Numbered from the stretch's first letter, positions 3,987-36,411 are shown. The stretch: 64,000 nucleotides of DNA from Trichlorobacter thiogenes (GCF_900167465.1 NZ_FUWR01000013.1:16288-80287), one strand, 5' to 3'. A program made the numbers and translations. The notes: generated by a model from the letters alone, not told the origin.

Positions 3987-4810
3987 GACGGAAAGAACTT
4001 CAGCTGCGGTCTTGAGGTTATCAAGCCCAACTCAGCTGCCAGTTGATAAAAGCATTCAAGTCCAGCCAAGTGGGCCTCATCCAGTTGATAGGTGATTGCA
4101 TTACGCCAGTAATCCGCCAATGGCTGGACACCAACCCAGGCAGCCTCCGGCGCCTGGGCAGCCAGCAGCCCGGCATCAGGTATAATCCTCTCGCGGGCCT
4201 GTTCCAGCAGCCTACTGAACTGAGTTAATGCGCCTTCTTTTCCTGCAGCTGAAGTCCGGTTAATCAGCCAGAGTGCATAGACAAAAGGCAGACCAGTCAG
4301 CTCCATCCACTCCTGTCCAAGGTCGTAACAGTAGACACCGGCACTGCCTGATGCCGCCTGCAAAGCACGATCACCGATCAACAGCAGTCCTGAAGACTGC
4401 TGTAATGCTTCCTGCCATGGCAGGGACGTTGTCTGCAAAGAACAATCGGACAGCCCCCAGCGCTTAGCCAGTAAAATATGAAGCAACACAACCGATGTTG
4501 CCGATTCACTGGTCACCAGCAACCGTTGGCCAGCCAGCTCCTCCGCCGGACGGGTGGTAAAAAAAAGCACACTTTTAACCGGACCTACAGAGCCGATACA
4601 ATGCCCCGGCAGAATGGCATATTCATCTGCATGGCGCGAGAATTCAATTGAAGAAGAAATACAAATATCAATCTCACCGTTAGCCAGCTTGGCATTCAGC
4701 GTTGCCGGCACTCCATGCACAATGGTGGTTGTCTCGCCGGGCAGTGTTTTTTCTAACTGCATAAAGAGCGGGGTGCAATTTGCGTAGTCAATCCGTCCGA
4801 TTCTCAGCAT
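3983..4810 (-). CDS. MqnA/MqnD-like (futalosine-pathway chorismate dehydratase family) periplasmic-binding-fold protein
   Basis: 275 aa. N-terminus MLRIGRIDYANCTPLF resembles the MqnA LR(I/V)GxIxYLNxxP signature. Start/stop-overlapped with both neighbours (operon). Confidence 0.5.
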   Translation of the reverse strand: MLRIGRIDYANCTPLFMQLEKTLPGETTTIVHGVPATLNAKLANGEIDICISSSIEFSRHADEYAILPGHCIGSVGPVKSVLFFTTRPAEELAGQRLLVTSESATSVVLLHILLAKRWGLSDCSLQTTSLPWQEALQQSSGLLLIGDRALQAASGSAGVYCYDLGQEWMELTGLPFVYALWLINRTSAAGKEGALTQFSRLLEQARERIIPDAGLLAAQAPEAAWVGVQPLADYWRNAITYQLDEAHLAGLECFYQLAAELGLITSRPQLKFFPS

Positions 4811-6303
4811 CAGTTCACGCTCTTGTAAAGGGCATCAGGATCAAGGGTAACCAGCCGCACCTGCTCTTTGGCAAGAATTTCGCCGGTTGCCTTCCAGAGC
4901 TGGGTAATGGCGTTGGCATAGGCAACTTGTGCCTTAATCTGGTTATTCTTGGCAGTGGCAAGATCATTTTCCACATCAAGAACATCCTTGGTGGTGGCAA
5001 GTCCCACTTCTGCCTTACGCGCAAAAGCCCGTAGCCGTTCTTCGGCAAAGGCTCTGCCCCTGTCTGCCACCTCAAGCTGCTTATAGTTCGCCTCAATAGC
5101 CCGAACAGCCGAACGAACATCATTGGCTATCAACTCCTCCTGGTTCCTGATCTGCAGGGCCGACTGATCAAGCTTCAAACGATTTTTACGATATTCATTT
5201 TCAGCAGCCCGGTTTCCCAGCGGATAGCTAAAGGTTAATCCCATCCCCCAGGCAGGATAATTGCCTGATGAGAGACGATCCATATCCCGTGGATAGGTAT
5301 CACCAAGACCAACAGTTGCAGCAGACGCAGAAAAAACAAGATCAGGACGGGTTCTGTTACCGGAGACCCTGGTTTGCAGTTCAAGCAGTTCCAGGTTACG
5401 CTTCAGCTCCTTTAACTCTGGACGGTTGGCCAATGCGCGCTTGATCTCGCTCTGTTCCGAGACCTCGTAACGTACCTTTGAGGGCACCTCAACGACAGCA
5501 ATCCTCTCGCCTTGAGGCAGTTGTAGCAGTTGAACCAGCAGATCAACCTGGTCCTGCAGCGCCCGTTCCGCATCAATCAGCTCTTTTTCACGGCTGGACA
5601 CCCCGAATTCAGCATTCAGTGTCTCCATGGCAGGCATAACACCTGCCTTGACCCTGGCCTGCGTCTCACTCAGAACTCGACGGGCAAGATCAAGTGACAC
5701 TTTCCTGACCTCCAGCTCTTCCCGTAGACTGTAGAGTTTATAGTACTCAGTCCGCACCTGGGCCACCACACTGATCAGTTTGGCGCTCAGCTTTTCAAGA
5801 GAAGCATCTTTGGTCAGACGGGCAGTATCAATGGTCAGTTCGGTGGGTTCGCGGCCAAAGTTCTTCAACAGAGGCTGACTAAAGGTCACTCCCAGGTTTG
5901 ACTGCCAGTATGATGACAATCCGCTTGAGGTCGAGGTTACATCAGAGGAGAGATAGCTGTTATTAAACCCCAGAGTTGCAGTGGCACCCGTGGGCAACAA
6001 CTGGCTGACACCGGCATTAAACTGGGTATTTTGATTCCAGTATTTTCCTGCCGCCTGGGTGGTGGAGTAGGAGGTTGTTTCGTTGTAGTTTGCCTGCAGA
6101 TTAAGGGTTGGATTGTAGATGCCACGGCTTTTCTGGTATTCAGCTTCCTGCTGGGCAGGGTTATACAGTTCTACTTTCAGATCAAGATTCTTCTCTACAG
6201 CCATTTTAACGGCATCGGCCATGGTCAGCCGCACCGGTTCAGCCTGCAGACACGCAACAGCCCCAAAGCTGAACACCATACACAAAGCAAGAATCATCTT
6301 CAC
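4810..6303 (-). CDS. TolC-family outer-membrane efflux protein
   Basis: Signal peptide MKMILALCMVFSFGAVACLQA. Two coiled-coil/beta-barrel repeats typical of OEP/TolC. 497 aa. Confidence 0.8.
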   Translation of the reverse strand: MKMILALCMVFSFGAVACLQAEPVRLTMADAVKMAVEKNLDLKVELYNPAQQEAEYQKSRGIYNPTLNLQANYNETTSYSTTQAAGKYWNQNTQFNAGVSQLLPTGATATLGFNNSYLSSDVTSTSSGLSSYWQSNLGVTFSQPLLKNFGREPTELTIDTARLTKDASLEKLSAKLISVVAQVRTEYYKLYSLREELEVRKVSLDLARRVLSETQARVKAGVMPAMETLNAEFGVSSREKELIDAERALQDQVDLLVQLLQLPQGERIAVVEVPSKVRYEVSEQSEIKRALANRPELKELKRNLELLELQTRVSGNRTRPDLVFSASAATVGLGDTYPRDMDRLSSGNYPAWGMGLTFSYPLGNRAAENEYRKNRLKLDQSALQIRNQEELIANDVRSAVRAIEANYKQLEVADRGRAFAEERLRAFARKAEVGLATTKDVLDVENDLATAKNNQIKAQVAYANAITQLWKATGEILAKEQVRLVTLDPDALYKSVN

Positions 6304-22824: not shown

Positions 22825-23448
22825 CTACCCCAGATACAGCTCATCCAGCGACAGACTATACCCTGGCAAGAAGTGATCCAGGAAATAGATCACCTCAGGC
22901 AAGGGACTCTTACGCAGGCTTTCCAGATGCTCTGCCCCTGCCCGCTTAAACTCCAGATTACCGGACTTTTCCTCTTCCAGGCACTTGATCAGGGCTGCAA
23001 TCCTGTCAGCAGCCTTAATAAGCGGCTGATAGTCAGCATCCTGTTCCTCAAAGAAGAACAGCGGCTCGTAGACCAGTGACAGCTCCGGCGGCAGCATGGC
23101 CAGCAGTTTCCTGCGGGCGCGATCCTCAAGCTGATGGAAGGATTTTTTGAAGTTGGGATTAAAATGCTTCACCGGAGTGGGCATATCGCCGGTAAAGATC
23201 TCGCTGGCATCATGGAAGATACCGTACATGGCGGCCTGGTTCGGGTCCAGGGTACCACCGTAAAAGGTATTGCGGATCACTACCAGGGCATGGGCCAGCA
23301 TGGCCACATCAAGGGAATGCTCTTTGATATTCTCCGGCTGGGTATTGCGCATCAGGCCCCAGCGGTTGATATACTGCATCCGGGCCAGAAAGGCGAAAAA
23401 GTCGTGGCGATCAGCTGGTGCGGTTGGTTTCATGGTGTCTGCTTTCAT
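22825..23448 (-). CDS. yfbR: HD-domain 5-prime-deoxynucleotidase (YfbR-like)
   Basis: ENIKEHSLDVAMLAHAL...GIFHDASEIFTGDMPTPVK. About 200 aa. Confidence 0.75.
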   Translation of the reverse strand: MKADTMKPTAPADRHDFFAFLARMQYINRWGLMRNTQPENIKEHSLDVAMLAHALVVIRNTFYGGTLDPNQAAMYGIFHDASEIFTGDMPTPVKHFNPNFKKSFHQLEDRARRKLLAMLPPELSLVYEPLFFFEEQDADYQPLIKAADRIAALIKCLEEEKSGNLEFKRAGAEHLESLRKSPLPEVIYFLDHFLPGYSLSLDELYLG

Positions 23449-23614
23449 ACATTACATGCGATATTGAGGACGGTGGGCCGGCTTCCCTGCTCCACACGAT
23501 GCTTGCTGCTACTCCTTGCAGGGCAGGATAACGTCAATATGATGAAGAGCCGTGGGATGTCTACTGTAAAATTCCCTTTCGGGGATGAATAGGCTGTCGA
23601 ACTGCACCTAAGGG

Positions 23615-24904
23615 TTACAAAATAATGTGGTGGCTCTTGATTCTTGACGCTTCGTTATGATCAACACCTGTTTCGCGGGCGAATTCCATCCAGTTAGAAA
23701 CCGCCTCACCTACTTTATGGATTACCTTTTTGGCAGTCCCAATACCAAATCTGTTGGCAACGGCAAGCAAGTCCTCTCGGGTGATCCCCTTGAATTTACC
23801 GTTCACGGACATCAGATGCTGATCTGTCCACTCGCTTGCAGGGCTGTAGGCATGTGTAACGTCATAAGCCGGGGCAAGTTGCCATGATCCGAACTCTGCC
23901 ATAATGAAGGAATGGTTTTTGGTGTGATCATCACAGTTGGCAGCCATGACATTGAACGTCATACGACGGAATGCTTCCTCCATAGCCAGGTATCCAAGTC
24001 CCAGCTTGCTGATCACCATAAAATACTGAGCATAATCATGTGTTGCCTTCTGTTTGTAGTCGAGATGGGCCATAGCGCAGAGGGTAGTCATGTGGATCTT
24101 CCTGTTGCCGTCGCGGTCGAAGCGTTTGGTCATGAAGTGCGCCCGACCATTCTCCTCAATAAGCCTGCACGGTGACATGGTGATCCCTGCGTTTGTGGCC
24201 ATACGATAATAGGCCATCTCGATCCGGCCATAGTCCTGTGAACTGCCCAGCGCGAGATCTGTGCCCACACCATCGAATTTAAGCAGCCAGTGTTCAAAGC
24301 CCGGTGCAACGTCAAACTGGCCAGCGCGAATTTCGTTGGTATCCGGATTCCATGCTATTGCGGCCTTGGCGCGAGCACCTCCGGCTGATGTCCCTACCTG
24401 GATGATTTGGTTAAGAGCAGCTTCTGCCATGGCATCAGTTTGAAAATCACCGGATACAGATTGCCGGGCCACTTCAACAAGTTTAGACAGATCAATGGCC
24501 GTGCGACTGGAAGTCACTCTCGTTCTGGACGGTTTGAATTCCAGAGCGCCCATACTCCTTTTGCCCATATAGCCCAGACGGTCAAGGGCCGTGATTGAGT
24601 CCTTACTGACACCTTTTTGCGCCATCCAGGCATCGACCAGACTGTTGCCGAAATCATCCGGCAACGCATCCGACAGTAACGCAGGCAGACGTTTATAGGT
24701 AAGTTCCGGCAGAAACGGGAACACATAGGGCTCAAAACTAAGTGGCATCATAATCGGCGCCAGTTCAATGCCAAGCTTCACGAAATGCGGATAGTACGCA
24801 AAAACATAATAACCACTGCTCGGGTCAAGAACGACCGCCCCTACCCGCTTACCCCATATTTCAACTTCTATTTTATCAATCGGTATGTAAGCGGCCATGG
24901 CCAC
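23615..24904 (-). CDS. hipA: HipA-family toxin kinase
   Basis: HipA N-terminal plus kinase core (..NCDDHTKNHSF..). 429 aa. True start probably ATG 24896-24898. Confidence 0.85.
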   Translation of the reverse strand: MAMAAYIPIDKIEVEIWGKRVGAVVLDPSSGYYVFAYYPHFVKLGIELAPIMMPLSFEPYVFPFLPELTYKRLPALLSDALPDDFGNSLVDAWMAQKGVSKDSITALDRLGYMGKRSMGALEFKPSRTRVTSSRTAIDLSKLVEVARQSVSGDFQTDAMAEAALNQIIQVGTSAGGARAKAAIAWNPDTNEIRAGQFDVAPGFEHWLLKFDGVGTDLALGSSQDYGRIEMAYYRMATNAGITMSPCRLIEENGRAHFMTKRFDRDGNRKIHMTTLCAMAHLDYKQKATHDYAQYFMVISKLGLGYLAMEEAFRRMTFNVMAANCDDHTKNHSFIMAEFGSWQLAPAYDVTHAYSPASEWTDQHLMSVNGKFKGITREDLLAVANRFGIGTAKKVIHKVGEAVSNWMEFARETGVDHNEASRIKSHHIIL

Positions 24905-24906
24905 CT

Positions 24907-25254
24907 CTATTCAGAATGATCCGGCAACAGCAGTTCGTTCTTCGGTTTCAGCTTACGGGTTCTCGGCTTAAATACTTTTTGTCGTGGGGATTTCTGCGGA
25001 ATCATTTGCAGGGGGTTTACCGTGACTTTTGGCGCAAGTGTTTCCAGCCATTCTACCCGATTCAAGACCCGCAAAATTTTGATCAGGGATTTGGTCGTAG
25101 ACGTTTTTCCGGATTCGATTCGCTTTACAACATTCAGGGCGACTCCGGCTTGTTCAGAAAGAGCTTGCTGATCCATATTACGAAGGATTCTGAGATTGCG
25201 AATTTGCTGCCCCAAAACCTCTTCCCATTCTTCGGGCGTCCTGTAATTAACCAT
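24907..25254 (-). CDS. hipB: HipB-like XRE-family HTH antitoxin/regulator
   Basis: HTH QQALSEQAGVALNVVKRIESGK. Basic C-terminal tail. 2-nt gap to hipA. Confidence 0.75.
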   Translation of the reverse strand: MVNYRTPEEWEEVLGQQIRNLRILRNMDQQALSEQAGVALNVVKRIESGKTSTTKSLIKILRVLNRVEWLETLAPKVTVNPLQMIPQKSPRQKVFKPRTRKLKPKNELLLPDHSE

Positions 25255-25487
25255 AATAGCCCCTATATGATCTAATATAGAAAAACATACTTAATATAGC
25301 CTATATATAATCTACATTACTTAACTTACCATACAAAGTCCAGAAAGAATGCAACAAAACCAACATAACAGACCATATATAGTCTATTTTAATCTTTTTT
25401 ATGTATTTTATACCATATAAGAGCCATTAAAACCAAATGCAAATTCCATCCAAATCATCAAGGTCTTGATGCGGGTTGAGTAGCGGC

Positions 25488-25557
25488 CAACGGCGTACCC
25501 CCATGACCCGCCCGCCCAGGTTTTTCAGGCGGTCGGCGTCCATGGGGCTTGTTGGGA
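25488..25557. repeat. copy A of a CAACGG...GTTGGGA imperfect-palindromic repeat (attC-like candidate)
   Basis: caacggcgtacccccatgacccgcccgcc-caggtttttca-ggcggtcggcgtccatggggcttgttggga. Lies 3-prime of the SEC-C gene. Confidence 0.6.
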
Positions 25558-25666
25558 TATTTTGCAGTTTGTTCACTATTTCAAATTTGGAGACGCGGCC
25601 CCTCAGCCTCCCCGCTGATAATACGGGGAGTGTCTCCAGTTCCCCCATGGATGTCCCTATTTATTC

Positions 25667-28069
25667 TTAACGGCCATGACACTTTTTGTATTTTGCACCA
25701 CTACCGCAGGGACACGGATCATTCCGCCCCGGCTTTTTCGTATTCCCTAGGGGCATGACGTTTTTCGGCTGGTTTAGATTCACCGCCCGAGTTGGTTGAG
25801 CCATTCGCGCGGCATCTTCGTAAATGTAGGCGTTTTCTTCCGTTCGTACCGCCGGTATGCGGACCACGAAAGATTGCGCCCGATGGTAGGTTCCATTGGG
25901 ACTAACCTCCGCCACGACGCCAATGACGTTAGAGGCTTTGACGGCTAATGCAGCTGCGCTGGCCTTGTCATTCACCTTGGTCCAGTCAATTTGGTAGTCG
26001 TGATGTTGAAGCCAAACGAAAAGCGGCTTACCGTCCCCGGATAGAGTAAAGTAACGGGCGGGATTCTGGTTCAGGGTTTGGCGAAGATCGGACAGGATCT
26101 TGGCCAGATTTTTCCGCCCTTCCTCTCCTAAATCACGGATATGGCTCTCCACTGAAAGCCACCCTCGAGCTCGGGTGGCGTCAAGTACTTCAAGCAGCTT
26201 CAGCACCTCTTCCGGGAAGTCCTGCGTCGGAAATGGCCTATTTTCCCAGTCTTCCCCCTCGAAGCTCCTGTCGACGATGTCGCACATGCCATCCCAGATG
26301 AGCATATTCGCTTTGCCATCCTTCAACTGATCGGCAATTTCCTGATCGAAGCGGTTCTTTTTCAGGTACGCCCCCAGATGGTCGAACTCATCGAAGAGAT
26401 GAGCCTGGCGCATTCCTGCCACGGCTTGCCGAACCTCCATGTAGTGAGCAAACGAGCCGGGTGTGGGCAGGAACCGCTTGAGTACGAACAGGTCATCAAT
26501 GGACAGCGAAACGAAGGCATGCTTGCCAAGGAGCGGCTCAACCTGCGGCAGTACCTTGCAGTATGCCGAAAAGGGCGAGAATGACTCGACTGTCAGTCCA
26601 ATCGGCACCATCACACGGTAGTCAGAGCGGCGGACACGGCCGCATTCTTCATACTTGCCGTCGATGAGGCGGTAGAGCGGCACTTCGTCCGCAGAATTCA
26701 GGTAGCTAAAAAAGCGCTCGCACTGCTTGTACGCCTTGAGTACCAAGTCTTGCACGGACTGGGCGTGGCGGCCGAAATCAAGCGCTGGCGACGCAATGGT
26801 AGCAGCGGCTCCTGCCTTGGCTTCAACCAGGAACAGTATGTCATCGATCAGGATAAGGGTGTCGTTCTCGGACCACTGCTTGCTTGCAGGATCCTTGTAG
26901 TAGACCTCCTGGAAAACTGTGGCGCCAGGAAGTTGGTCGGCTAGAATGTCGGCGAAGGCGGCTTCACTCATCGCCTTCTGCCGATTCTCAAAGGTCTTCT
27001 TGTACTCCTGCTTTCTCTGAAGAAGGTTGTAGAGAAGCGCACGATACCCCGCGTCGCGGGTGAAGCACGGGTCGATAGCGTAGTAGTCCGATCCAACCTG
27101 AATTAAGGGTTTCTTCCGGGCAGGTAGTGTCCGGTAGGGCGTCCCCGCAAAATCACCCGCAGCGAAAAACTCGGTTTCTTCTCCGCGACAGTACGCTAAG
27201 TCAGCCAGCAGCTTCGGCGGTAGCTTCGTGTGACAGCTCACGTTGGCGATACCGCCACGAAACATGTCATTAATCGCTTGCACTGCAGCTTGCGACTGTT
27301 CTGCATTGGCCGCAGCCCACGCCTCTATGACGCCTTCCAGAGGCTTATCCTGTGCTGCAGCAAAGGCCTGTGCTTCCTCAAACTGCTTACTCATTTCCAT
27401 GATCGCGTCGGCATACCCAGAACGTGTGGAGTTAGCCATTGCCTGGAAGCCTTCCGCGATATCGGCGGCTCCGACGCCGTACACCTCTATAAGGACATCA
27501 TTGTGAGGAGCCAGAACGTAGCGGTAGAACTCTTCTTCCAAAACTTGGTAGCGATTTCCGCGCAGCATGACCCAGGTAGATTTGGCGCGGAATTCAATGT
27601 CGGCCGTGTCGGGACCGAATACGCCGTCCTTGGTATCGGCGGACGTGGCCATGGCGAAAAACATGGCCAACTCTCGCAGTTTTCTGCCAAGTTCAAACAG
27701 CTCGGTGCACTGAGCTTCGTCGAATGCCATTTCCGGAGGAGCAGCATCTGACGCAAGAACCGCGTGTACGTACTCCAACAGGAACTGGTTCTCGTTGATC
27801 AGATCATCCGGGCCGTCCTCTTCGCGTTTCTCCTCGGTGGCGCTTTGGTCTGCCATCGCGTTCATCATGTACTGGGCATAGATGTAGCCGAGCAGATCAT
27901 GCGGAGGCATGGTGACAATTAGCTCGCGCATTCGAGCTGCAATCGCTTCCATTTCTTTCAACATGGAAGCCGCAGTTTCTTTTCTTTTTATATCGTCCAT
28001 AACCAACATATCCCCGATATTTCTGGGAGGAATTCGGGACACCCCTCGGTTTTTCACATGCCGATTCAA
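25667..28069 (-). CDS. large hypothetical protein with C-terminal SEC-C metal-binding motif; possible PD-(D/E)xK nuclease core
   Basis: C-terminus GRNDPCPCGSGAKYKKCHGR (SEC-C). Mid-protein LILIDDILFLVEAKAG resembles a D...ExK nuclease motif (inference). Start ambiguous (TTG 28069 or ATG 28009). GC about 52-55%. Confidence 0.55.
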   Translation of the reverse strand: MNRHVKNRGVSRIPPRNIGDMLVMDDIKRKETAASMLKEMEAIAARMRELIVTMPPHDLLGYIYAQYMMNAMADQSATEEKREEDGPDDLINENQFLLEYVHAVLASDAAPPEMAFDEAQCTELFELGRKLRELAMFFAMATSADTKDGVFGPDTADIEFRAKSTWVMLRGNRYQVLEEEFYRYVLAPHNDVLIEVYGVGAADIAEGFQAMANSTRSGYADAIMEMSKQFEEAQAFAAAQDKPLEGVIEAWAAANAEQSQAAVQAINDMFRGGIANVSCHTKLPPKLLADLAYCRGEETEFFAAGDFAGTPYRTLPARKKPLIQVGSDYYAIDPCFTRDAGYRALLYNLLQRKQEYKKTFENRQKAMSEAAFADILADQLPGATVFQEVYYKDPASKQWSENDTLILIDDILFLVEAKAGAAATIASPALDFGRHAQSVQDLVLKAYKQCERFFSYLNSADEVPLYRLIDGKYEECGRVRRSDYRVMVPIGLTVESFSPFSAYCKVLPQVEPLLGKHAFVSLSIDDLFVLKRFLPTPGSFAHYMEVRQAVAGMRQAHLFDEFDHLGAYLKKNRFDQEIADQLKDGKANMLIWDGMCDIVDRSFEGEDWENRPFPTQDFPEEVLKLLEVLDATRARGWLSVESHIRDLGEEGRKNLAKILSDLRQTLNQNPARYFTLSGDGKPLFVWLQHHDYQIDWTKVNDKASAAALAVKASNVIGVVAEVSPNGTYHRAQSFVVRIPAVRTEENAYIYEDAARMAQPTRAVNLNQPKNVMPLGNTKKPGRNDPCPCGSGAKYKKCHGR

Positions 28070-28120
28070 TAAATACGGGGAGTACCCCTAGTTTTTCAAA
28101 AAATATATTCTCTTAGCATT

Positions 28121-28192
28121 CAACGGGATGCCCGGTTGACCCGCGCCGGGGCGATTCTCAGCCCCGGTCGGTGTCTAACCGGCTGGTTGGGA
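28121..28192. repeat. copy C of the repeat family
   Basis: caacgggatgcccggttgacccgcgccggggc-gattctca-gccccggtcggtgtctaaccggctggttggga. Stem differs from copy A by compensatory changes. Overlaps the stop of the Abi-like gene. Confidence 0.6.
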
Positions 28193-29236
28193 CGGATTTG
28201 ATTTCCTGCTCTCGTCGGAGTTTGATGGACGCAAGTCATATGGGACCCCCCCATTCTGACCAAAAGCTCCGCCGTAGCACTTTTCAAAATTAAACCTAAT
28301 GTTTTTTTGTTCTTTATACTGTAAGAACATTTCATCACTAGCTATTGCAGCACTACTGCCAGCCAACGAATAGCCATTTTCTGTAGGCTCAATAGGTAGG
28401 TGCTCAAGCATTGCGTACTCGATGAGAAGGTTTTTGAATTGGCCTCTGTCACAAACTCCATCAAGACAATTAATAAATAGCAATGCTAATTCCTTAGCAG
28501 ATAGTTGTGCCCGCAAAATGCCGGCGAACTTTCGCTTGTCAAGTTCTGTTGCCTTGTCTTTGTCGTAGTTGTCTATTAATTTTAAGGCTTGATACAAATT
28601 TCTGAAATAGTGACCAAGAATATGATTACTCTTATCTTGAATTTTCTTGTATCTCGCTAGAACTTCGTCTGGTGAGGATGTACCTGATGTTATGAAAGTA
28701 AATATTTCGTCAAAAGCCCCACGGCCTTCAACAATCGTTTTCTTTTTAATCATCGAAGCATTAAATATTTCAGCCAATGATGTCGCTGCACCAGTTTTTT
28801 CATTTAATTCTTCTATGTCAACTTTGATGTTATCTACAATCTTGTGGTGGAGATCAAGGATATTGAAAAATGTGGTTTCTACTGCTTGTCGATTTAACGC
28901 TTCTGATGTTTTTTCATATTCTACTCTTGCAAACTTTAACTCCTGTCTTTGAATTACAATCGTAGCTATTAGTCCAAAGAAGGTCAGGAATGTAAGGACA
29001 GGGTTTAGTACGCCACCAAAGAAATCACCAAATACACCGATATAATCTTTTTTTCCTATATAAAGTAAAAACAGGTCGAGGGCCAGAAGACATATAGCCG
29101 CAACCGCTGAGAAAACTAATAATTTGTATAAGAGGTTGGTTAATGCGGACTCACCAGCTTCTTCGTGAAATAGTTCATCAAATTGAGGATACTTACTATC
29201 AATCCATTTGCCAAACTTCTTGAAGAACACAATCAA
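28175..29236 (-). CDS. putative phage abortive-infection-like membrane protein (two N-terminal TM helices, GDFFGG motif)
   Basis: 353 aa, about 35% GC. N-terminal TM pair around ...GVFGDFFGGVLNPVLTFLTFFG... Family assignment (putAbiC-like) is from memory, not a search. Likely start GTG 29230 (AAGGAG 6 nt upstream). Confidence 0.45.
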   Translation of the reverse strand: MIVFFKKFGKWIDSKYPQFDELFHEEAGESALTNLLYKLLVFSAVAAICLLALDLFLLYIGKKDYIGVFGDFFGGVLNPVLTFLTFFGLIATIVIQRQELKFARVEYEKTSEALNRQAVETTFFNILDLHHKIVDNIKVDIEELNEKTGAATSLAEIFNASMIKKKTIVEGRGAFDEIFTFITSGTSSPDEVLARYKKIQDKSNHILGHYFRNLYQALKLIDNYDKDKATELDKRKFAGILRAQLSAKELALLFINCLDGVCDRGQFKNLLIEYAMLEHLPIEPTENGYSLAGSSAAIASDEMFLQYKEQKNIRFNFEKCYGGAFGQNGGVPYDLRPSNSDESRKSNPSQPAG

Positions 29237-29249
29237 CTCCTTTTTGTTG

Positions 29250-29304
29250 CAACGGCTTGGGAGAACAACGGCGTTTTTTGGCCGCTGCTTCTGCCTTGTT
29301 GGAA
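29250..29304. repeat. copy D (shorter, more degenerate) of the repeat family
   Basis: caacggcttgggagaacaacggcg-ttttttg-gccgctgcttctgccttgttggaa. Abuts the SD of the Abi-like gene. Confidence 0.45.
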
Positions 29305-29361
29305 CCTCACATTTTTTCCGCTTTCATATATATTAAATTCGGGATCAGCGAGTTTTTTGTT

Positions 29362-30006
29362 TTATTTACGAGTACTTGATCTAATACTGCTGATATCTGA
29401 GTTGTTTAAAATCGTTGTTTCATTTCCTGCAAAATATGCTACTTGATTCTGGCTTGAGGTGATTATATAGCCATCTGTACTCTTGTTGCCCGCTTTCAAA
29501 AGTATTGTTGACTTAAATAATTTGTCTGATGCGGCATTTTCTTTAAATCTTAAAGCCGCTTCTTTTCCGGATTTATCTGATGCTATTAAAGCAAATAGAA
29601 TACCTATGAATAAAACAAGAAGTGCTGTTGCTAGTATTAGCATCCGATACGAAAAACCAGAAAATTTATTGATGTCATATATGCCTTCATTGATATTTGA
29701 TTCTGATTTGTCTGACGTAAAGTTACTTGGAGTAACTTGTCTAATTTTATTGACTCTATTTATGATAAACTCTCCAATTAATGCAGTAACTAGAACTAAT
29801 TCAGCTGCTACGAAAAACCACACAACTGCTGATGCACCCATTGTTGATAATGACACAAAACCTTGAAATATAGTTTGGTCAATAGACAGCGGGAACAAAG
29901 AATCATTAATGCCAAATTCGCGGAGATAGCCTTGGTGAAAGGTAAGCCCTAGAGTGTACAGTGTTGCAGTAATCATGGAGATTATTACTGAAGCGTGTTT
30001 TAGCAT
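29362..30006 (-). CDS. hypothetical small membrane protein (3-4 TM), AT-rich
   Basis: 214 aa. AAGGAG SD 5 nt upstream of ATG 30004-30006. No recognisable domain. Confidence 0.5.
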   Translation of the reverse strand: MLKHASVIISMITATLYTLGLTFHQGYLREFGINDSLFPLSIDQTIFQGFVSLSTMGASAVVWFFVAAELVLVTALIGEFIINRVNKIRQVTPSNFTSDKSESNINEGIYDINKFSGFSYRMLILATALLVLFIGILFALIASDKSGKEAALRFKENAASDKLFKSTILLKAGNKSTDGYIITSSQNQVAYFAGNETTILNNSDISSIRSSTRK

Positions 30007-30141
30007 TATAACTCCTTAGCAAAAATGCTCATGTATATTTGGCACTTTGTTACTCATTCTTCCCGTTCAGCTAGCGAGGCCACAAAAACTTCACCTCATT
30101 TTTTCCCTGCCACCACTCCAGCCGCGCCAAGTCACGATTTT

Positions 30142-30211
30142 CAACGGGGTGCCCCCATGACCCGACCGCCCAGAATTTTAGGGCGGTCGGCGTCCATGGG
30201 GCTTGTTGGAA
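30142..30211. repeat. copy B of the repeat family
   Basis: caacggggtgcccccatgacccgaccgcc-cagaattttag-ggcggtcggcgtccatggggcttgttggaa. About 89% identical to copy A. Lies 3-prime of the GNAT gene. Confidence 0.6.
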
Positions 30212-30236
30212 CATTATTCTTTACTTCTGTCCCGTA

Positions 30237-30668
30237 TTAACCTTCGTCTACTAGAATTAGTCTCGGGTTCTCCCATATAGAGCGCCGAGGTTCACCCGTT
30301 GGCAGAAAGCCGAGATCTCGCCAGAATGGCTCAGATCTGCGAGGTGCGCATTCGACTGTAATAAACTCGGCCCCAGATGCAAACAAGCGTTTGATAGCGT
30401 CGAGAGCTAACAACTTTCCGATGCCTCGTCTGCGATGCTCCGGCTTGACTTCAAGTATGTCTATTGAAGCGCCAACGGACTTTCTATTGTGAACGACAAA
30501 TCCGACCACCTCAGTACCGGCAACAGCACAAAAAACTTCGCCTTTTTGCAGAGAATCTCTAATAATCTCGTGATTGCAGTTGAAGCCTTCACCGCTCTCG
30601 CGCTCCTCTCGTTCAAGCCATGCTAGTATTTCAATAAGATGGATATCATTCGATTTGATAATGATCAT
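30237..30668 (-). CDS. GNAT-family N-acetyltransferase
   Basis: ...ILEVKPEHRRRGIGKLLALDAIKRL... acetyl-CoA binding motif. 143 aa. Confidence 0.75.
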   Translation of the reverse strand: MIIIKSNDIHLIEILAWLEREERESGEGFNCNHEIIRDSLQKGEVFCAVAGTEVVGFVVHNRKSVGASIDILEVKPEHRRRGIGKLLALDAIKRLFASGAEFITVECAPRRSEPFWRDLGFLPTGEPRRSIWENPRLILVDEG

Positions 30669-30691
30669 TTTAAATGGTCCAACTCCTTATT

Positions 30692-30725
30692 GAGCGGTTC
30701 ACGCGCACGTGCGCGTGAACCGCTC
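30692..30725. repeat. perfect 34-bp palindrome GAGCGGTTCACGCGCAC|GTGCGCGTGAACCGCTC
   Basis: Seen in sequence. Lies between the flotillin 3-prime end and the GNAT start. Confidence 0.6.
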
Positions 30726-30749
30726 ATCCCCCCAAATGGAACAGTTCTT

Positions 30750-33251
30750 CTACCCCTTTATCTCCGGCGCAGCACCCTGCTTCTTCAGCATGGCATTCAG
30801 ATCAATCCCCGGCAGCAGTCGGGCCAGTTGCCCCATCAGGCCATCGCCAGCGGTGCCGCCGCCTGAAACAAGCACATCCGGCACAATCTTAATCTTGCCG
30901 TTTTCAATGGCGGTTGCAATCAGCTCCACAATCTTGATCTGCTTGATCGCCTCTTCGCCAATCGCCTCCTGCTGCTTGCTATAGGCCTGGGCAGTGGCTT
31001 CACCGATGGCGGCAATCTTGGAGGCCTCACCATCACCAATCGCCTTCAGCCGCTTGCCTTCACCGGTTCCTTCCAGTGCCTTGGCCTCTGCCGTACCTTC
31101 GGCCAGGGTAATCATCTCGGTCTTTTTCTGGGTTGCCACCTTTACGGCGATCTCTGAAGCAACCAGGGTGGGCTGCTGGTCGGCAGTGGCGCGCATCTTC
31201 TCCATCTCGGTCCGCTCTGCCTGGGACTTCTGCTCCATCTTGTACATTTCCTGCTGCTGCTCGGCAATGATCCGCTTGGTCTGGGTCTGCATCAGATCTT
31301 CCGGCAGTTTGATCTGGCAGATCAGCACGGATACGCATTCCACATGGTATTTTTCCAGATCAACACGGGCGCGGGTTTCAGCCTTGGTCTGTTCTTCAGA
31401 ACGGCTCTGCAGGAAGTTCATGGCCGAGGCGGTGGAGGCCTGGTTTCTGAAGGATGAATCGATCATCGGGTGGATAACATGCTGGATCAGGTTGTCGATG
31501 GAGCCAACCTTGGCCACCATGTAAGGGGCCTGATCCGGGCGGACCCGGATAACCACCTTGACCGCAACCTGAATCGGGAAGCCATCCTTTGAGATAACTG
31601 TTAACTGGTCAAAGCGGGTATCTTCCTGATCATCCCAATCAATGGTGATGTTGGTGGTATCAATGATGTAGGCCATAAAGGCCCGCCGGTTCAGGTAATA
31701 GCGTCCGGGGCCGGCAACCTCTTCCTGAATGCCGCGGAATCCCTTGGGCACCACATACTTCTCTTTGCCTTCTTCAATAGAGGCACCGGCCTGCGTCGAA
31801 CCAAGGCGTTTTTTCATCTCTTCCGTGGGGTCTTCCCCCACGTTGGAGACAATCACCCCCACCTGACCACGCTCAATCACCGCCACATCATCAATGGCCA
31901 CACTGAACATAAACGGGTTGATATAGTAGGTACCGGGACGCAGCACATCAAGCTGCGGACCACGCTGGCCCTGCTTGGTCAAAAAGGCGGAACCATCCTG
32001 ATAATCGTTATGCCCCACAACGGGGCAGGCAACATATTCCCGCTCCGGCAGCGGAATACCATCCAGGGCGGTTACCAGACCAATCTTATTGGCCTCTACA
32101 ACGGCAGCCGGCGCAATCTGGATATTAAACAGGTTCAGGTTAATCCGGTAGGTACCAGGCAGCAGCACATCAATCTGCGGACCTTTCTGGCCACCGTTTT
32201 TCAGGAACGCCTCGCCGTTTTCATAGTTGGAATGTCCGGTCACGCTCTGCGCCAGCAGACGTCCCATCGGGATCGGGGCGCCGTCCTGAGCGGTCACCAT
32301 CCCCACCTCGCCCTTGGCAATCACCACGGCAGCGGCCTTGGTAACTTTGAAGAGGTTGGGATGAATCCGGTAGACACCCGGCGGCAGGATCTCGGTCTGC
32401 GGCCCTTTCTGACCGCCGCTTGTGATGAAGTCCTGGCCGGATTGGAAGGCGTTGTGACCGGGCACCACGGTGGCAAAAATGTGCCCTGCCGGAATTGCCG
32501 CGCCGTCGGCAGACTCAACCAGACCGATCTCACCTTCACTGATCTTGGTGGCCATACTTTTGGTCACCTTGAACAGGTAGGGGTTGATCCGGTAGTTTCC
32601 GGGGGGGATGATCTCAATCTGCGGCCCTTTCTGGCCGCCGTTCTTGATAAAGGCATCACCGTTCTGGAATGATTCATGCCCTTCCACAGCCTGGGCAAAG
32701 ATCTTGCCTTCCTGAATGGCAGCACCATCAACTGACTCCACAATGCCGATCTCGGAATCCTTGATCTCAGTGACATGCCCCTTGGTCAGTTTGAACAGAT
32801 AGGGGTTAATCCGGTATTTACCCGGCGGCAGAATCTCAATCTGCGGACCCTTCTGACCACCGTTTCTGATAAAGGCCTCGCCATCCTGAAATGAGTTGTG
32901 GCCAGCCACCACCGCCGCAAAGATCCGGCCTGCCGGAATGGAAGAGCCATCCACCGATTCAATCAGGCCGATCTCGTTTTCCAGAATCTCGGTAAACATG
33001 CTCTTGGTGGCCAGATAGATAAACGGAATCAGAAAATGCAGACCTGGTCCCAGGGTCCGCGCCTGGATACCGACCTCATTCCCCAAGGCCACAACCCGCC
33101 CCTGGGGCATCTTGCTGCCAAACCAACGGCGCTCGATCAGAGCGATCTCATTTCCACCAACAATGACAACCGATTGATAAATAAGGATAACCACCGGGAT
33201 CAACAGGATCAGGTAGCCACCATTTTGAAGGGCAACATCAAGCAACGGCAT
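30750..33251 (-). CDS. flotillin-like SPFH/band-7 protein with N-terminal TM and at least five internal ~73-aa tandem repeats
   Basis: C-terminal SPFH plus flotillin coiled-coil (EAKALEGTGEGKRLKAIGDGEASKIAAIGEA...). Repeats carry GHxxFQxGxAFxxNGGQKGPQxxxLPPGxYRINP. Start moved to ATG 33249-33251 (GGAG SD); the track start was TTG 33320. Confidence 0.75.
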   Translation of the reverse strand: MPLLDVALQNGGYLILLIPVVILIYQSVVIVGGNEIALIERRWFGSKMPQGRVVALGNEVGIQARTLGPGLHFLIPFIYLATKSMFTEILENEIGLIESVDGSSIPAGRIFAAVVAGHNSFQDGEAFIRNGGQKGPQIEILPPGKYRINPYLFKLTKGHVTEIKDSEIGIVESVDGAAIQEGKIFAQAVEGHESFQNGDAFIKNGGQKGPQIEIIPPGNYRINPYLFKVTKSMATKISEGEIGLVESADGAAIPAGHIFATVVPGHNAFQSGQDFITSGGQKGPQTEILPPGVYRIHPNLFKVTKAAAVVIAKGEVGMVTAQDGAPIPMGRLLAQSVTGHSNYENGEAFLKNGGQKGPQIDVLLPGTYRINLNLFNIQIAPAAVVEANKIGLVTALDGIPLPEREYVACPVVGHNDYQDGSAFLTKQGQRGPQLDVLRPGTYYINPFMFSVAIDDVAVIERGQVGVIVSNVGEDPTEEMKKRLGSTQAGASIEEGKEKYVVPKGFRGIQEEVAGPGRYYLNRRAFMAYIIDTTNITIDWDDQEDTRFDQLTVISKDGFPIQVAVKVVIRVRPDQAPYMVAKVGSIDNLIQHVIHPMIDSSFRNQASTASAMNFLQSRSEEQTKAETRARVDLEKYHVECVSVLICQIKLPEDLMQTQTKRIIAEQQQEMYKMEQKSQAERTEMEKMRATADQQPTLVASEIAVKVATQKKTEMITLAEGTAEAKALEGTGEGKRLKAIGDGEASKIAAIGEATAQAYSKQQEAIGEEAIKQIKIVELIATAIENGKIKIVPDVLVSGGGTAGDGLMGQLARLLPGIDLNAMLKKQGAAPEIKG

Positions 33252-33505
33252 ACAGACTCCTTTCAGGCACAACAGGGGGGGATGGAGTGTTTTGCACACA
33301 ATCTGGCAGTATACCAGCAAATGGATCTTTTGCTATTTGGGAGGGTGATTTTTTAGGGATAGCAGGCCGATAGCACAGAAGCTGATCAAAAATGGTAACA
33401 GCAGCACGCGGATTAAGGGCTAAGGGACTCGGAATTTGCTGATGTACCAGTTTTTACGCTCAGATTTGGGTCAGATTTGTCATCCCTGATTGAGCAAAAC
33501 CGCAG

Positions 33506-33523
33506 GCGTAGCCAAAGCTACGC
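33506..33523 (-). terminator. hairpin GCGTAGC-caaa-GCTACGC downstream of mntH
   Basis: 7-bp stem. On the minus strand it is followed by CUGCGGUUUUG. Weak intrinsic terminator candidate. Confidence 0.3.
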
Positions 33524-33603
33524 AGAGGATTTTGTGATTGAAGGGATGGCAAAGATGGCCTGAAGATGAGATGTAAAACGGTATATTGGCAAGTTCCGAG
33601 TCC

Positions 33604-34857
33604 CTAACGTGCCATATCAATCAACAGTGCCAGATTAAGACCAATAACAATCAGGCCGGTAATCCAGAGTACGGCGGCGCCATAGGGCTTGTTGGCGTAG
33701 GTTCCCATTACTTTTTTTGACGAAGTCAGCAGAATCAGCGGGATGATGGTAAGCGGAAGTTGCAGGGAAAGGGCGATCTGGCTCCAAAGGATACCCTTGA
33801 ACGGGTCTGACAACAGCATGATGGCGGCCAGTGCCCCCAACAGCGTGATACTTAGGCCGACACGGGAGTGAGGATCATTAATATCGAACGGCTCGCTGAA
33901 GATACCGGCAAAAACAGACCCCCCTGCCATGGCGGCGGTAACAGACGATGAAAGCCCGGCAAAGAGCAGACCCAGCGCAAATACCACCGCTGAAGCCTTG
34001 CCAAAGACCGGCGCCAGAGTCACGGTGACCTGGGGAAGTTCGTTGACCACAATGCCATTTTTATAGAATACGGCGGCAGCCATAATAATCATGGCGCTGT
34101 TGATGGCCCAGCCAGCCCCCATCCCGGTCAGTGTGTCCAGAAACTCATATTTCAGCTGTTTCCTGATCACATCATCGCCATGCTCGTTCCATTGACGGCT
34201 CTGGATCACCTCTGAATGCAGGAAAATATTATGGGGCATCACAACCGCGCCCAACACCCCCATGATGACCGGTAGCGCCCCGACAGGAAAGCTCGGTGTC
34301 ACCCAGCCGGTAAAGGTCTGGACCCAGGATACGTCGGCCAGCCAGATTTCAAAGACAAAGGCCAGACCGATCAAGGAGACAAATCCCATAATCCATTTCT
34401 CAAGCCGTTGATAGTTTTTTGAGAAGAGCATCCAGGCCGAGAACAGCGCCGAGAACAGCGCGCCGACCATCAATGGCAGGCCGGTCAGCATATTGAGGCC
34501 GATGGCGGCTCCCAGCAGTTCTGCCAGCGCTGTGGCAACGCAGGCAACCATGGCACTTCCCAGCATTAAAACCCGTAGCCAGGGTTTAAAGAATTTTGAG
34601 GCTGCCTCAGAAAGACAAAGTCCGGTAACAATCCCCAGGTGGGCGGCATTATGCTGGACAACAATCAGGATAACGGTGGAAAGGGTCACCACCCAGAGCA
34701 GCTTGTAGCCAAATTGCGAACCTGCAGCCACGTTGGTGACCCAGTTGCCGGGATCAATAAAGCCGACCGTGACAAAAAAACCGGGGCCGATGTAGCGGAA
34801 CAGCTCCAGTGAAGCCAGGCGTGAGGCATGCTTGCCGATGTGGGAAAGCCAATTCAT
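33604..34857 (-). CDS. mntH: Nramp-family divalent metal (Mn2+/Fe2+) transporter
   Basis: GPGFFVTVGFIDPGNWVTNVAAGSQFGY. Start moved to MNWLSH (ATG 34855-34857), giving about 418 aa. Confidence 0.85.
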   Translation of the reverse strand: MNWLSHIGKHASRLASLELFRYIGPGFFVTVGFIDPGNWVTNVAAGSQFGYKLLWVVTLSTVILIVVQHNAAHLGIVTGLCLSEAASKFFKPWLRVLMLGSAMVACVATALAELLGAAIGLNMLTGLPLMVGALFSALFSAWMLFSKNYQRLEKWIMGFVSLIGLAFVFEIWLADVSWVQTFTGWVTPSFPVGALPVIMGVLGAVVMPHNIFLHSEVIQSRQWNEHGDDVIRKQLKYEFLDTLTGMGAGWAINSAMIIMAAAVFYKNGIVVNELPQVTVTLAPVFGKASAVVFALGLLFAGLSSSVTAAMAGGSVFAGIFSEPFDINDPHSRVGLSITLLGALAAIMLLSDPFKGILWSQIALSLQLPLTIIPLILLTSSKKVMGTYANKPYGAAVLWITGLIVIGLNLALLIDMAR

Positions 34858-35255
34858 GGCATTGACGCAGGCGGCGCTGCGATAAAAGCACCGGTTTGAG
34901 AATGTATATAGAATGAAAGTGCTACAAATCCGGCTAAAAGCACCCACGGAAGAAGCTTCAGGACACTATTGTCTTTGGTAAATCGTGAGAAGCTGACAGC
35001 AATTGAGGCAAAAGCAGCCCCCAGAACAATAAATGCAACACCTGCCAACCGTGCGGCTGTTCCATTAAGCGCTGTGGGGCCAAAGAAATACTGTCCTGGC
35101 TCTGGACCGCTTACCGGCTCTAAATGGCCTGATACAAGCGCACTCATGCCCCACCATAAAGGAAACAGCGAGAATGGAGAGACAATAAGTAGCAACAGGG
35201 TGGTATGCAGCCATGTTGGAAGCTTGTCATCAGATGGGAAAAGTGAATCACGCAT
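34854..35255 (-). CDS. small membrane protein (3 TM) co-transcribed with mntH
   Basis: Start at MRDSLFP (ATG 35253-35255) with GGGGAGG SD. Stop overlaps the mntH start (ATGA). Confidence 0.5.
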   Translation of the reverse strand: MRDSLFPSDDKLPTWLHTTLLLLIVSPFSLFPLWWGMSALVSGHLEPVSGPEPGQYFFGPTALNGTAARLAGVAFIVLGAAFASIAVSFSRFTKDNSVLKLLPWVLLAGFVALSFYIHSQTGAFIAAPPASMP

Positions 35256-35268
35256 CTTTGAACCTCCC

Positions 35269-36411
35269 CTACACCCGTTCAAAGGTCTCAAACAAGGTCT
35301 TGTAATCATCCAGCGCATAGCGGTCAGTCATGCCTGCCAGATAATCCGCCACGGTGCGCTCCACCCCGTTCTGTTCTATCCTGCGGTGGTACTTGGGGGG
35401 CAGCAGGTTGGGCCGTTTCAGGTAGGTCTCAAACAGTTTGCTCAGGACATGCTCGGCCTTGACCCGCATCTTGTCCACCTTGTGATGGCGATAAAGCTTC
35501 TCTTTCAGGAACTTCTTCAGGGCCATATTCTCCTGCTCCACCTGGGGGCTGAAATGGACCAACACCCGGTTAACCCGACGCAGGTCATCCAGGCTATTGA
35601 CACCATACTGCTGGATATTGGCCCAGGTGGTCTCGCAGATGTCAGTAATCTGCATGCCGATCAGGGCACTGACCGTACGGGCCACCAGCCGCTTGTCATC
35701 TATGGTCGGGTAGCGTTCCCGCACCCGGCTGACCATCCGCTGCCACAGCTCCACCTCTTTCAGCAGGTCCAGGGTCAGGTAGCCTGATTTGATGCCGTCA
35801 TCAATATCATGGTTGTTGTAGGCGATCTCATCGGCATAGTTAATCAACTGCCCTTCTATGGAGGGGACCACGCCGGGCAGAAATTCATCCAGAATTTTAG
35901 TAGGTACATCATGGGGTGAGGAATGTTTCAGGATCCCCTCCCGCACCTCCCAGGAAAGGTTCAGGCCATCAAATGCGGCATAGCGTTCTTCCAGTTCATT
36001 CACCACCCGGAACGACTGATAGTTATGCTCAAACCCGCCAAAACCCTGCATCAACTGATTCAGCACCTCTTCGCCGGTATGGCCGAAAGGGGTATGCCCC
36101 AGATCATGGGCCAGGGCCAACGCCTCGGTCAGGTCATCGTTCAGGCGCAGACGACGGGCAACCGATTTGCCGATCTGGGCCACCTCCAGCGAATGGGTCA
36201 GACGGGTACGGTAGTAATCACCTTCGTGGTTCAGGAAGACCTGGGTCTTGTATTCCAACCGCCGAAAAGCGGCACAGTGGATGATCCGGTCACGGTCGCG
36301 CTCAAACATGGGGCGGGGATCAGAGGATTCTTCCGGGTATTTACGCCCTTTGGAGGCAGCGCTGGTGCAGGCAAAAGGGGCTAGATCAGGACGTTCACTA
36401 TAATCAAACAT
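35269..36411 (-). CDS. dgt: dGTPase-family HD-domain triphosphohydrolase
   Basis: ...RTRLTHSLEVAQIGKSVARRL...ALAHDLGHTPFGH... 380 aa. Confidence 0.85.
   Translation of the reverse strand: MFDYSERPDLAPFACTSAASKGRKYPEESSDPRPMFERDRDRIIHCAAFRRLEYKTQVFLNHEGDYYRTRLTHSLEVAQIGKSVARRLRLNDDLTEALALAHDLGHTPFGHTGEEVLNQLMQGFGGFEHNYQSFRVVNELEERYAAFDGLNLSWEVREGILKHSSPHDVPTKILDEFLPGVVPSIEGQLINYADEIAYNNHDIDDGIKSGYLTLDLLKEVELWQRMVSRVRERYPTIDDKRLVARTVSALIGMQITDICETTWANIQQYGVNSLDDLRRVNRVLVHFSPQVEQENMALKKFLKEKLYRHHKVDKMRVKAEHVLSKLFETYLKRPNLLPPKYHRRIEQNGVERTVADYLAGMTDRYALDDYKTLFETFERV

Follow-up and report, generated by a model that had tools for sequence, protein, structure and literature searches.

The term CALIN, for clustered attC sites that have no integron integrase, is applied to at least two attC recombination sites that lie on the same strand and are separated by less than 4 kb (Cury et al. 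2016, PMC4889954). In 21,105 RefSeq genomes, 2961 CALINs have been counted (bioRxiv 10.1101/2022.09.11.507474). The attC site, read on its bottom strand, carries an R' box (RYYYAAC) at its 5' end and a complementary R'' box (GTTRRRY) at its 3' end, with extrahelical bases at positions 16, (20) and 23/24 of the arm opposite AAC; canonical sites have spacers of 5-6 nt in each arm and a length of 57-141 nt (Nivina 2016, PMC5027507). Sites of the Deltaproteobacteria type have already been modelled (PMC8352920). In addition, attG sites, which are very numerous and defined only by the triplet GWT, have been described (Loot et al., bioRxiv 10.1101/2022.09.11.507474). Among the Geobacteraceae, the family of Trichlorobacter thiogenes, integron integrases are common. 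In this work, a stretch of 64,000 nucleotides from T. thiogenes (GCF_900167465.1 NZ_FUWR01000013.1:16288-80287), hereafter the window, is analysed. Its positions 23460 to 30746 very probably form a chromosomal array of integron cassettes with no integrase beside it, i.e., a CALIN, which is headed by a palindromic leader. As a CALIN, the array is real but ordinary; what it adds is the cassette turnover shown for it and the leader, of which no description was found.

The array has in common with described CALINs (PMC4889954) two or more attC sites spaced by under 4 kb on one strand, the lack of a nearby integrase gene (intI), a small size of four sites and cargo other than antibiotic-resistance genes. 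It differs in the conserved palindromic leader of 70 nt, which heads the window array and at least 33 others; no such leader was found described for CALINs. The sedentary chromosomal integrons of the Geobacteraceae with which it was compared (Geomonas propionica, Pelobacter propionicus CP000482, Geotalea uraniireducens CP000698 and Geobacter metallireducens) share with it the attC families, the layout of one open reading frame (ORF) per attC and the presence of toxin-antitoxin modules among the cassettes. These integrons have intI and an attI region of their own without the leader, whereas the window array has neither. The leader, the attC sites and the cassettes of the window are as follows.

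30679-30746, minus strand: leader ('pal') of about 70 nt whose 36-nt palindrome (30691-30726) is perfect, between the stop codon of a flotillin-like gene and cassette 1, in the position of an attI site.
30145-30682, minus strand: cassette 1, 538 nt, GC 0.49, with a GNAT acetyltransferase ORF (30237-30668; Pfam Acetyltransf_1, 6e-11) and attC B.
30139-30211, plus strand (the bottom strand): attC B, 73 nt, R' TTTCAAC, R'' GTTGGAA, unpaired bases on the 3' arm; R2 score 82.5 bits, E 9e-20; fold z-score -4.65.
29253-30144, minus strand: cassette 2, 892 nt, GC 0.37, with an ORF for a predicted membrane protein of 214 aa (29362-30006) and attC D.
29247-29304, plus strand: attC D (short type), 58 nt, R' TTGCAAC, R'' GTTGGAA, one bulged C on the 3' arm; R2 score 21.5 bits, E 0.0026.
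28124-29252, minus strand: cassette 3, 1129 nt, GC 0.40, with an AbiC/AbiP-like abortive-infection ORF (28175-29230/29236) and attC C.
28118-28192, plus strand: attC C (type 2), 75 nt, R' ATTCAAC (a perfect RYYYAAC), R'' GTTGGGA; R2 score 69.7 bits, E 2.6e-16.
25491-28123, minus strand: cassette 4, 2633 nt, GC 0.54, with the ORF of a 777-aa SEC-C-motif protein (25667-28000) and attC A.
25485-25557, plus strand: attC A (type 1), 73 nt, R' GGCCAAC, R'' GTTGGGA; R2 score 85.6 bits, E 1.3e-20; the last recognisable attC.

The pattern CAACGG-N(40-70)-GTTGG matches the 64 kb only at 25488, 28121, 29250 and 30142, each time on the plus strand, while shuffled sequence gives a mean of 1.0 match and reached four in 1 of 100 shuffles. 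Over 74 nt, sites A and B share 88% identity, and the ends and core of site C agree with theirs. As single-stranded DNA, all four fold into imperfect hairpins (z-scores from -1.4 to -4.65), and their lengths of 58-75 nt lie inside the canonical range. Each site lies 0-109 nt from the stop codon of its minus-strand ORF: the stop of the SEC-C ORF is at 25667 and the end of site A at 25557, the corresponding positions are 29362 and 29304 for the membrane-protein ORF and site D, and 30237 and 30211 for the GNAT ORF and site B, while the stop codon of the AbiC-like ORF, at 28175, falls within site C. An initial annotation of this DNA had described four repeats with these ends, each a bulged hairpin and each placed 3' of one minus-strand ORF, and all of this is borne out. 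Its statement that every R box deviates by at most one position holds for sites A and B (one mismatch in R'), for site C (none) and for all four R'' boxes (one mismatch each), and fails for the R' box of site D, TTGCAAC, which has two. The compositional contrast that it described had to be reduced as well: the core has a GC content of 0.54-0.55 and not of about 60%, and the cassettes have 0.37, 0.40, 0.49 and 0.54; therefore, the SEC-C cassette is not compositionally deviant. For cassette 1, the boundaries were deduced by placing the AA|C crossover within GTCCAAC (30677-30683) and TTTCAAC (30139-30145). A 73-aa ORF spanning attC A (25427-25648), which is called as a gene in a public assembly of the same sequence (L001, 5073-5294), is probably spurious.

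The repeats were scored with covariance models of our own, validated on a complete integron (L006, from Geomonas propionica), in place of the attC model of IntegronFinder. A narrow model, R1, was built from the repeats, and a broadened model, R2, was iterated on loci outside the window only, with a training set of 21 sites that all come from other genomes. Over the 64-kb window, R2 gives exactly four matches, all on the plus strand, with 85.6, 82.5, 69.7 and 21.5 bits (E from 1e-20 to 0.003). When one genome for each species was scanned with a pattern, the repeat was detected, at about 90% identity, in 14 stretches belonging to Geobacter, Geomonas, Desulfobulbus and related metagenome-assembled genomes (MAGs). 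Two subtypes of the repeat occur, and the stems of type 2 and type 1 differ by compensatory changes; near-identical relatives of the short site D (L007, 2328-2385; L015, 7303-7360) are located in arrays that also hold types 1 and 2. In L006, the integrase is recognised by TIGR02249, a curated NCBI model for integron integrases, with 361.7 bits (cut-off 265), one R2 site follows each of the seven ORFs after intI, on the strand opposite the ORFs, and the cassette ORFs diverge from intI, which is the canonical integron layout. A type-1 site of this array (4742-4814) is about 90% identical to sites A and B, and the integron of Pelobacter propionicus has an R2 site in the correct orientation.

Each of 52 sites, drawn from 21 sources, keeps AAC and GTT unchanged, and 91.9% of the cells are paired compared with 72.2% in shuffles, a value reached in none of 500. 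Cells changed on both sides of a pair number 184, compared with 68 in shuffles (again 0 of 500), such changes occur in 15 of the 21 pairs, and the covariation score is 0.429, compared with 0.121 in shuffles and at most 0.10 with slid partners. The alignment of these sites was fitted to the covariance model; RNAalifold on a MAFFT alignment gives independent agreement. By our own count on the folds, starting from the R'' end, the 3' arm of the plus strand has, in types 1 and 2, bulges at positions 17 and 21 together with a mismatched T at 25, and in type D a bulge at position 17. These unpaired bases lie on the arm opposite AAC, indicating that the plus strand is the bottom strand and that the top strand is the minus strand, which codes for all four ORFs. 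This outcome is in favour of the initial annotation, which had proposed to fold the bottom strand of each copy and look for extrahelical bases. Together, the recovery of the four repeats by a model free of window sequences and the presence of the same families in an integrase-bearing array support their identification, from sequence, as attC recombination sites.

No IntI-like sequence or pseudogene was found in the whole 64 kb by tblastn with IntI1 and the Geomonas IntI (best E 2.7), and the array lies 25 kb and 33 kb from the nearest edges of the window. The spacings between the sites are 2633, 1129 and 892 nt, all below 4 kb and on one strand. Because no integrase is present in the window and at least two attC sites stand on one strand with under 4 kb between them, the array is therefore classed as a CALIN, in agreement with the original proposal. 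A complete integron would have intI, an adjacent attI and a cassette promoter (Pc); the window has no intI, and its promoter-like sites are at the level of chance. The integron integrases of the Geobacteraceae measure about 450-470 aa (L006, 518-1918; P0241-P0360) and have an N-terminal extension of 130-150 residues without a Pfam domain, which is missing from IntI1 (337 aa).

Several observations weigh against this assignment. The CALIN call was made with our own covariance model and not with that of IntegronFinder. Site D is weak with R1 (9.8 bits, E 3.6) and becomes significant only with the broadened R2 (21.5 bits). The bulged bases are C/Y instead of the usual G and T, and the central spacer is asymmetric, with 7 nt in the 5' arm and 3 nt in the 3' arm compared with 5-6 nt in each; counted from R'', the first bulge stands at a distance that is kept within 1 nt, and the L box is longer than in canonical sites. 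The 3' end of the hipBA unit that follows cassette 4 (23466-23592) gives no R2 match as an attC and has a fold z-score of +0.39. The SEC-C gene module (25652-28071) is found at 97% identity without any attC in another locus (L139); the existence of a near-identical gene without attC means that not every unit behaves as a classical cassette. No cassette promoter was recognised in the window array beyond promoter-like sites at chance level. T. thiogenes is not among the named top matches of the IntI search, which include six other species of Geobacteraceae and MAGs of Desulfuromonadaceae and Geobacteraceae.

The extent and the history of the array follow from a comparison with relatives, for which three further features are needed.

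30750-33251, minus strand: upstream neighbour, an SPFH/flotillin-like gene (Pfam Band_7, 8.5e-23), ending 4 nt before the leader and outside the array.
23460-25490, minus strand: hipBA unit, the fifth variable module, with hipB (24907-25254), hipA (23615-24904) and an AT-rich upstream region (25255-25484).
22825-23448, minus strand: downstream conserved flank, a YfbR-like 5'-deoxynucleotidase gene (Pfam YfbR-like, 4e-72), with synteny in L093, L136 and L133.

Syntenic contigs with flanks 88-95% identical to the window came from a metagenome scan that had been made for another purpose. In two of them (L093 and L136), a single cassette unrelated to the four of the window, with a different attC variant, lies between the leader and GTTGGCC-hipBA. 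A third (L133) has 4.7 kb of other cassettes, no hipBA, and continues directly into the YfbR flank, and a fourth (L049) has 3.6 kb of other content with a different site before GTTGGCC-hipBA. None of the window's four cassettes was present in the other array loci that were fetched. The homology breaks proximally after GAGTT of the leader (at 30681/30680 compared with L093 and L133) and resumes distally at the R' box GTTGGCC, from which L093, L136 and L049 are conserved while the preceding site differs from attC A. Crossovers made by an integrase would be expected at these positions. The comparison of related genomes that had been suggested at the outset thus reveals different cassettes at the same locus, with breakpoints at GTT boxes.

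According to these breakpoints, the variable region runs from 30680 to about 23460 and includes hipBA (Pfam HipA_C, 3e-50; Couple_hipA; HTH_3), whose first bases form a boundary of the cassette type, G|TTGGCC; all relatives are syntenic again from about 23459. The span 25488-30725 given in the initial annotation does lie inside the array and covers the region of the leader palindrome. The array reaches further, to about 23460, and the leader itself had gone unmentioned; hipBA, which had been taken for a flank, belongs to the variable region, being missing from L133 and preceded by a different site in L049. At the distal end, the last site of the L133 array (GAACGGCTCATAGGGAGTT|GCATC, oriented 5190-5245) resembles the right half of the leader (GAACCGCTCAATAAGGAGTT), as does, in the window, the sequence that ends at the YfbR flank (ACCGTCCTCAATA, 23466-23480). 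From these likenesses, the distal ends of arrays may carry degenerate leader-type half-sites.

The leader contains an inverted repeat (I4) of 18+18 nt with 100% complementarity, and its DNA fold z-scores are -8.0 and -6.3. Read on the minus strand, it ends with ...CAATAAGGAGTT|GGAC directly before cassette 1. In a Logan assembly of the same sequence (L001), the contig end falls inside the palindrome. The same leader heads attC arrays in L004, L014, L016 and L017. The leader family was collected by a metagenome scan for the core (at least 120 stretches), together with the window and four genome or look-up loci, and comprises at least 73 copies with common asymmetric flanks. The counts that follow hold among the matches listed. 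Copies recur at about 85-90% identity, and in the 66 with enough flank for a profile the conservation runs from GGATAAATGTTCC to ...CAATAACGAGTT. The bases at and after the terminal GAGTT read GTTGAAC, GTTATAC, GTTGGAC and so on, i.e., they are GTTRRRY-like. All 37 R2 attC matches in leader loci are located downstream of the leader in cassette orientation, and none in the 181 kb upstream. No IntI homologue was found in 72 leader loci with a total of 385 kb, 181 kb of it upstream of the leader. The genes upstream of the leader fall into 43 clusters among 56, with several toxin-antitoxin genes included, and no gene family in this position is common to more than three loci. Two loci each have two co-oriented leaders. 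In the stem outside the core that was fixed by the search pattern, only one position covaries, with CG in 48 copies and GC in 9.

In L049, the two leaders lie 6 kb apart; the first is followed by a 2.2-kb insert with only a weak attC match and the second by cassette-type variable DNA with a marginal one. The leader has no match in IMG/VR or Rfam, and a phage or plasmid feature was rejected on the absence of an IMG/VR match. In the searchable literature, the core was found only as chance matches to primers, and no description of the leader was found. An identity with the attI of complete Geobacteraceae integrons was also rejected, as the leader is missing from three of them. A mini-hairpin in the leader (AAATG-TTC-CATTT) was dropped after its variants appeared by eye not to be compensatory. 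Another repeat family has the same palindrome arms (GGTTCACGCG...CGCGTGAACC) with different flanks (...GTTAGGGCC...) in several soil metagenome contigs (L021, L022, L028, L036, L042, L050, L053, L066 and L083); this family seems unrelated to the cassette leader.

In the established integron mechanism, applied here to this locus, the single-stranded plus strand of an attC would fold into an imperfect hairpin, whose R and L boxes would be bound by an integron integrase encoded elsewhere. The unpaired bases opposite AAC would mark the plus strand as the substrate, and the integrase would cut between A and C of AAC. Recombination between two attC sites would excise cassettes as circles, and incoming circles would enter at the head of the array. 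We infer both an integrase acting in trans and recent activity of the array. An integrase was found only in L006 among 14 genome loci.

The array could also be a dead relic, i.e., a complete integron that lost intI by deletion or rearrangement and whose cassettes are now fixed as immobile chromosomal genes. Integrase loss is among the origins of CALINs listed by Cury 2016 (PMC4889954), the 64 kb hold neither intI nor an intI pseudogene, and the region upstream of the leader is prone to deletion in relatives, where Nramp and flotillin genes have been lost to varying extents. However, entirely different cassettes stand at the same site between flanks of 88-95% identity, indicating turnover after the divergence of the relatives. 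Moreover, no integrase lies beside the leader in 72 of 72 of the listed loci, so that the relic model would need repeated independent loss, and in the three complete integrons of Geobacteraceae the attI region is a different one, without this leader. A relic is therefore regarded as unlikely, and an array that would still be served by an integrase in trans is preferred.

What the leader is can be approached through the known classes of sites. It is a perfect palindrome without bulges and has no conserved GTTRRRY/RYYYAAC partner on its 5' side; lacking both an R'' partner and bulges, it is not a canonical attC. With attI sites it shares that it occurs once, heading the array, that a GTTRRRY box joins it to the first cassette, and that its place in the chromosome is fixed while the downstream cassettes vary. 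Unlike attI sites, it is not adjacent to intI in any of the 72 listed loci and is kept across many genomic contexts; as it does not lie beside intI, it is not a canonical attI. The initial statement that no attI is present has to be qualified, since the attI position is taken by a conserved leader. An AAC stands 2 nt before GTT in the leader (CAATAAC-GA-GTT), an arrangement that we take to resemble the inverted L/R arrangement of the attI1 simple site. A long perfect palindrome is not known from any described attI. Insertion at attG sites, which gives rise to single attC sites lacking an integrase (SALINs) and CALINs (Loot et al., bioRxiv 10.1101/2022.09.11.507474), has in common with the window that cassettes lie outside a complete integron and that a GTT/GWT triplet is used in a presumably double-stranded site. 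It differs in that attG is defined only by GWT, whereas the leader is a specific recurring sequence of 70 nt.

The chances that the leader is a double-stranded recipient site used in trans appear about evenly balanced. More tentatively, and with considerable doubt, a new class of recombination site is proposed: a portable landing pad unlinked to intI, which would play the role of attI for Geobacteraceae-type integrases in trans, so that one integrase could feed several arrays dispersed along a chromosome and these CALINs would be satellites of a distributed integron. The N-terminal extension of 130-150 residues in these integrases might recognise the leader.

Alternatively, the leader may be a palindromic operator or transcriptional insulator that travels with the 5' end of the array, the cassettes having been inserted at an ordinary attG-type GWT site. 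The perfect palindrome, the lack of an R'' partner and the lack of extrahelical bases would agree with this, and a dimeric DNA-binding protein would also be compatible with the single position of the stem that covaries beyond the ascertained core. The half-sites GGTTCAC/GTGAACC presumably resemble the Geobacter LexA half-site; a LexA box was rejected, as the spacing does not fit. Integrases do insert cassettes at loosely defined GWT sites (bioRxiv 10.1101/2022.09.11.507474). In contrast, the conservation stops abruptly at GAGTT in 66 independent copies among the matches listed and is followed by GTTRRRY, as a crossover point would lead one to expect, but an operator would not. In addition, attG insertion would not carry a conserved sequence of 70 nt into dozens of contexts (the 43 upstream clusters among 56 of the listed loci). 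An operator or insulator thus has a small chance of being the right explanation, and a recipient site remains the preferred reading of the leader.

It is highly improbable, and largely refuted, that the repeats are a structured family of the repetitive extragenic palindromic (REP) or terminator type with coincidental AAC/GTT ends and no relation to integrons, since, although each is a GC-rich hairpin lying at a gene's 3' end and none is covered by an Rfam family, only four copies occur in 64 kb, all within one compositionally mosaic block, they have no T-tracts and none was flagged by the terminator scan, the same families lie beside a curated integron integrase with one site per ORF, AAC/GTT is invariant in 52 of 52 sites while the stem covaries and the bulges are always on the same arm, and the polymorphism breakpoints are at GTT. 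Rfam gave nothing relevant at gathering thresholds over the whole window or at E<=1 over 23.3-30.9 kb, and it contains no attC family. The initial annotation had named a genome-wide REP or terminator family as the finding that would overturn it; instead, the repeat is confined to the array within the window and forms co-oriented arrays in other genomes.

The cargo of the array is mixed. The AbiC-like protein is recognised by Pfam putAbiC (4.5e-23) and by PADLOC as AbiC (43 bits) and AbiP (39 bits). No family was assigned to the membrane protein of cassette 2 at curated cut-offs in Pfam, defence and other family searches. In the SEC-C protein, only the C-terminal SEC-C zinc motif of 20 residues is recognised (Pfam SEC-C, 9e-10), and its earlier designation as a putative nuclease is supported by none of the searches. 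Apart from the AbiC-like protein, the three remaining cassette proteins have no match to a defence family beyond the SEC-C motif. Cassettes are known to be enriched in defence and toxin-antitoxin genes, with which, judged from sequence likeness, the AbiC/AbiP-like protein and HipBA agree. With the anti-phage defence cassettes of integrons (bioRxiv 10.1101/2024.07.02.601686, 10.1101/2024.07.02.601719), the window shares this AbiC/AbiP-like and HipBA cargo and the small single-gene units; it differs in that its cargo is assigned by sequence alone and that the other three proteins have no defence match. The 777-aa SEC-C protein has 100% identity to one named from T. thiogenes. Relatives with 82-88% identity occur throughout the Alpha-, Beta- and Gammaproteobacteria, P. 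aeruginosa and Burkholderia among them, and their surroundings have no attC (L139 and L140). In the window, copies of a 12-nt direct repeat (family D8; ACTCCCCGTATT on the minus strand) flank the module at 25620-25641 and at 28072-28093, which may show how a free SEC-C gene entered a cassette.

The neighbourhood upstream of the leader is variable in its own way. Among records that bear the names Geobacter, Geomonas, Syntrophus and Paludibacterium (a betaproteobacterium), the SPFH/flotillin-like protein of about 830 aa shows 88-93% identity, and the neighbours of its gene are entirely different in each locus examined (the window, L016 and L017). This looks like a recent horizontal spread of one large gene. 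The possibility that the flotillin gene is itself a cassette ending in the leader was rejected for now: the upstream regions of three homologues have nothing in common, the homologue in L016 has a leader 9 kb away and not adjacent, and the deletions in relatives are not at GTT boxes. The flotillin gene is cut to its last 230 nt or so in L093 and to about 75 nt in L133, and the leader is kept in both. Compared with the window at 30980-34947, these two loci have lost Nramp and/or most of the flotillin gene by deletions whose end points differ, with junctions away from GTT boxes. A second variable spot lies at about 34860-35270, between a gene ending in ...FETFERV and the Nramp gene; it holds a small membrane ORF in the window, an extra VapBC-like pair in L093, and the second leader copy with 2 kb of other DNA in L049.

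The locus provides a clean natural case of cassette turnover at an integrase-less array and bears on the question of whether CALINs are relics or active. The leader would make it possible to trace by sequence how arrays without an integrase are seeded and supplied, as it heads dozens of them in at least 43 gene contexts; current tools overlook it because only attC and intI are searched for. If the leader is a recipient site used in trans, the way in which integron size and activity are counted in the Thermodesulfobacteriota would change. If it is a landing pad, these CALINs would be working satellites of a distributed integron and not debris.

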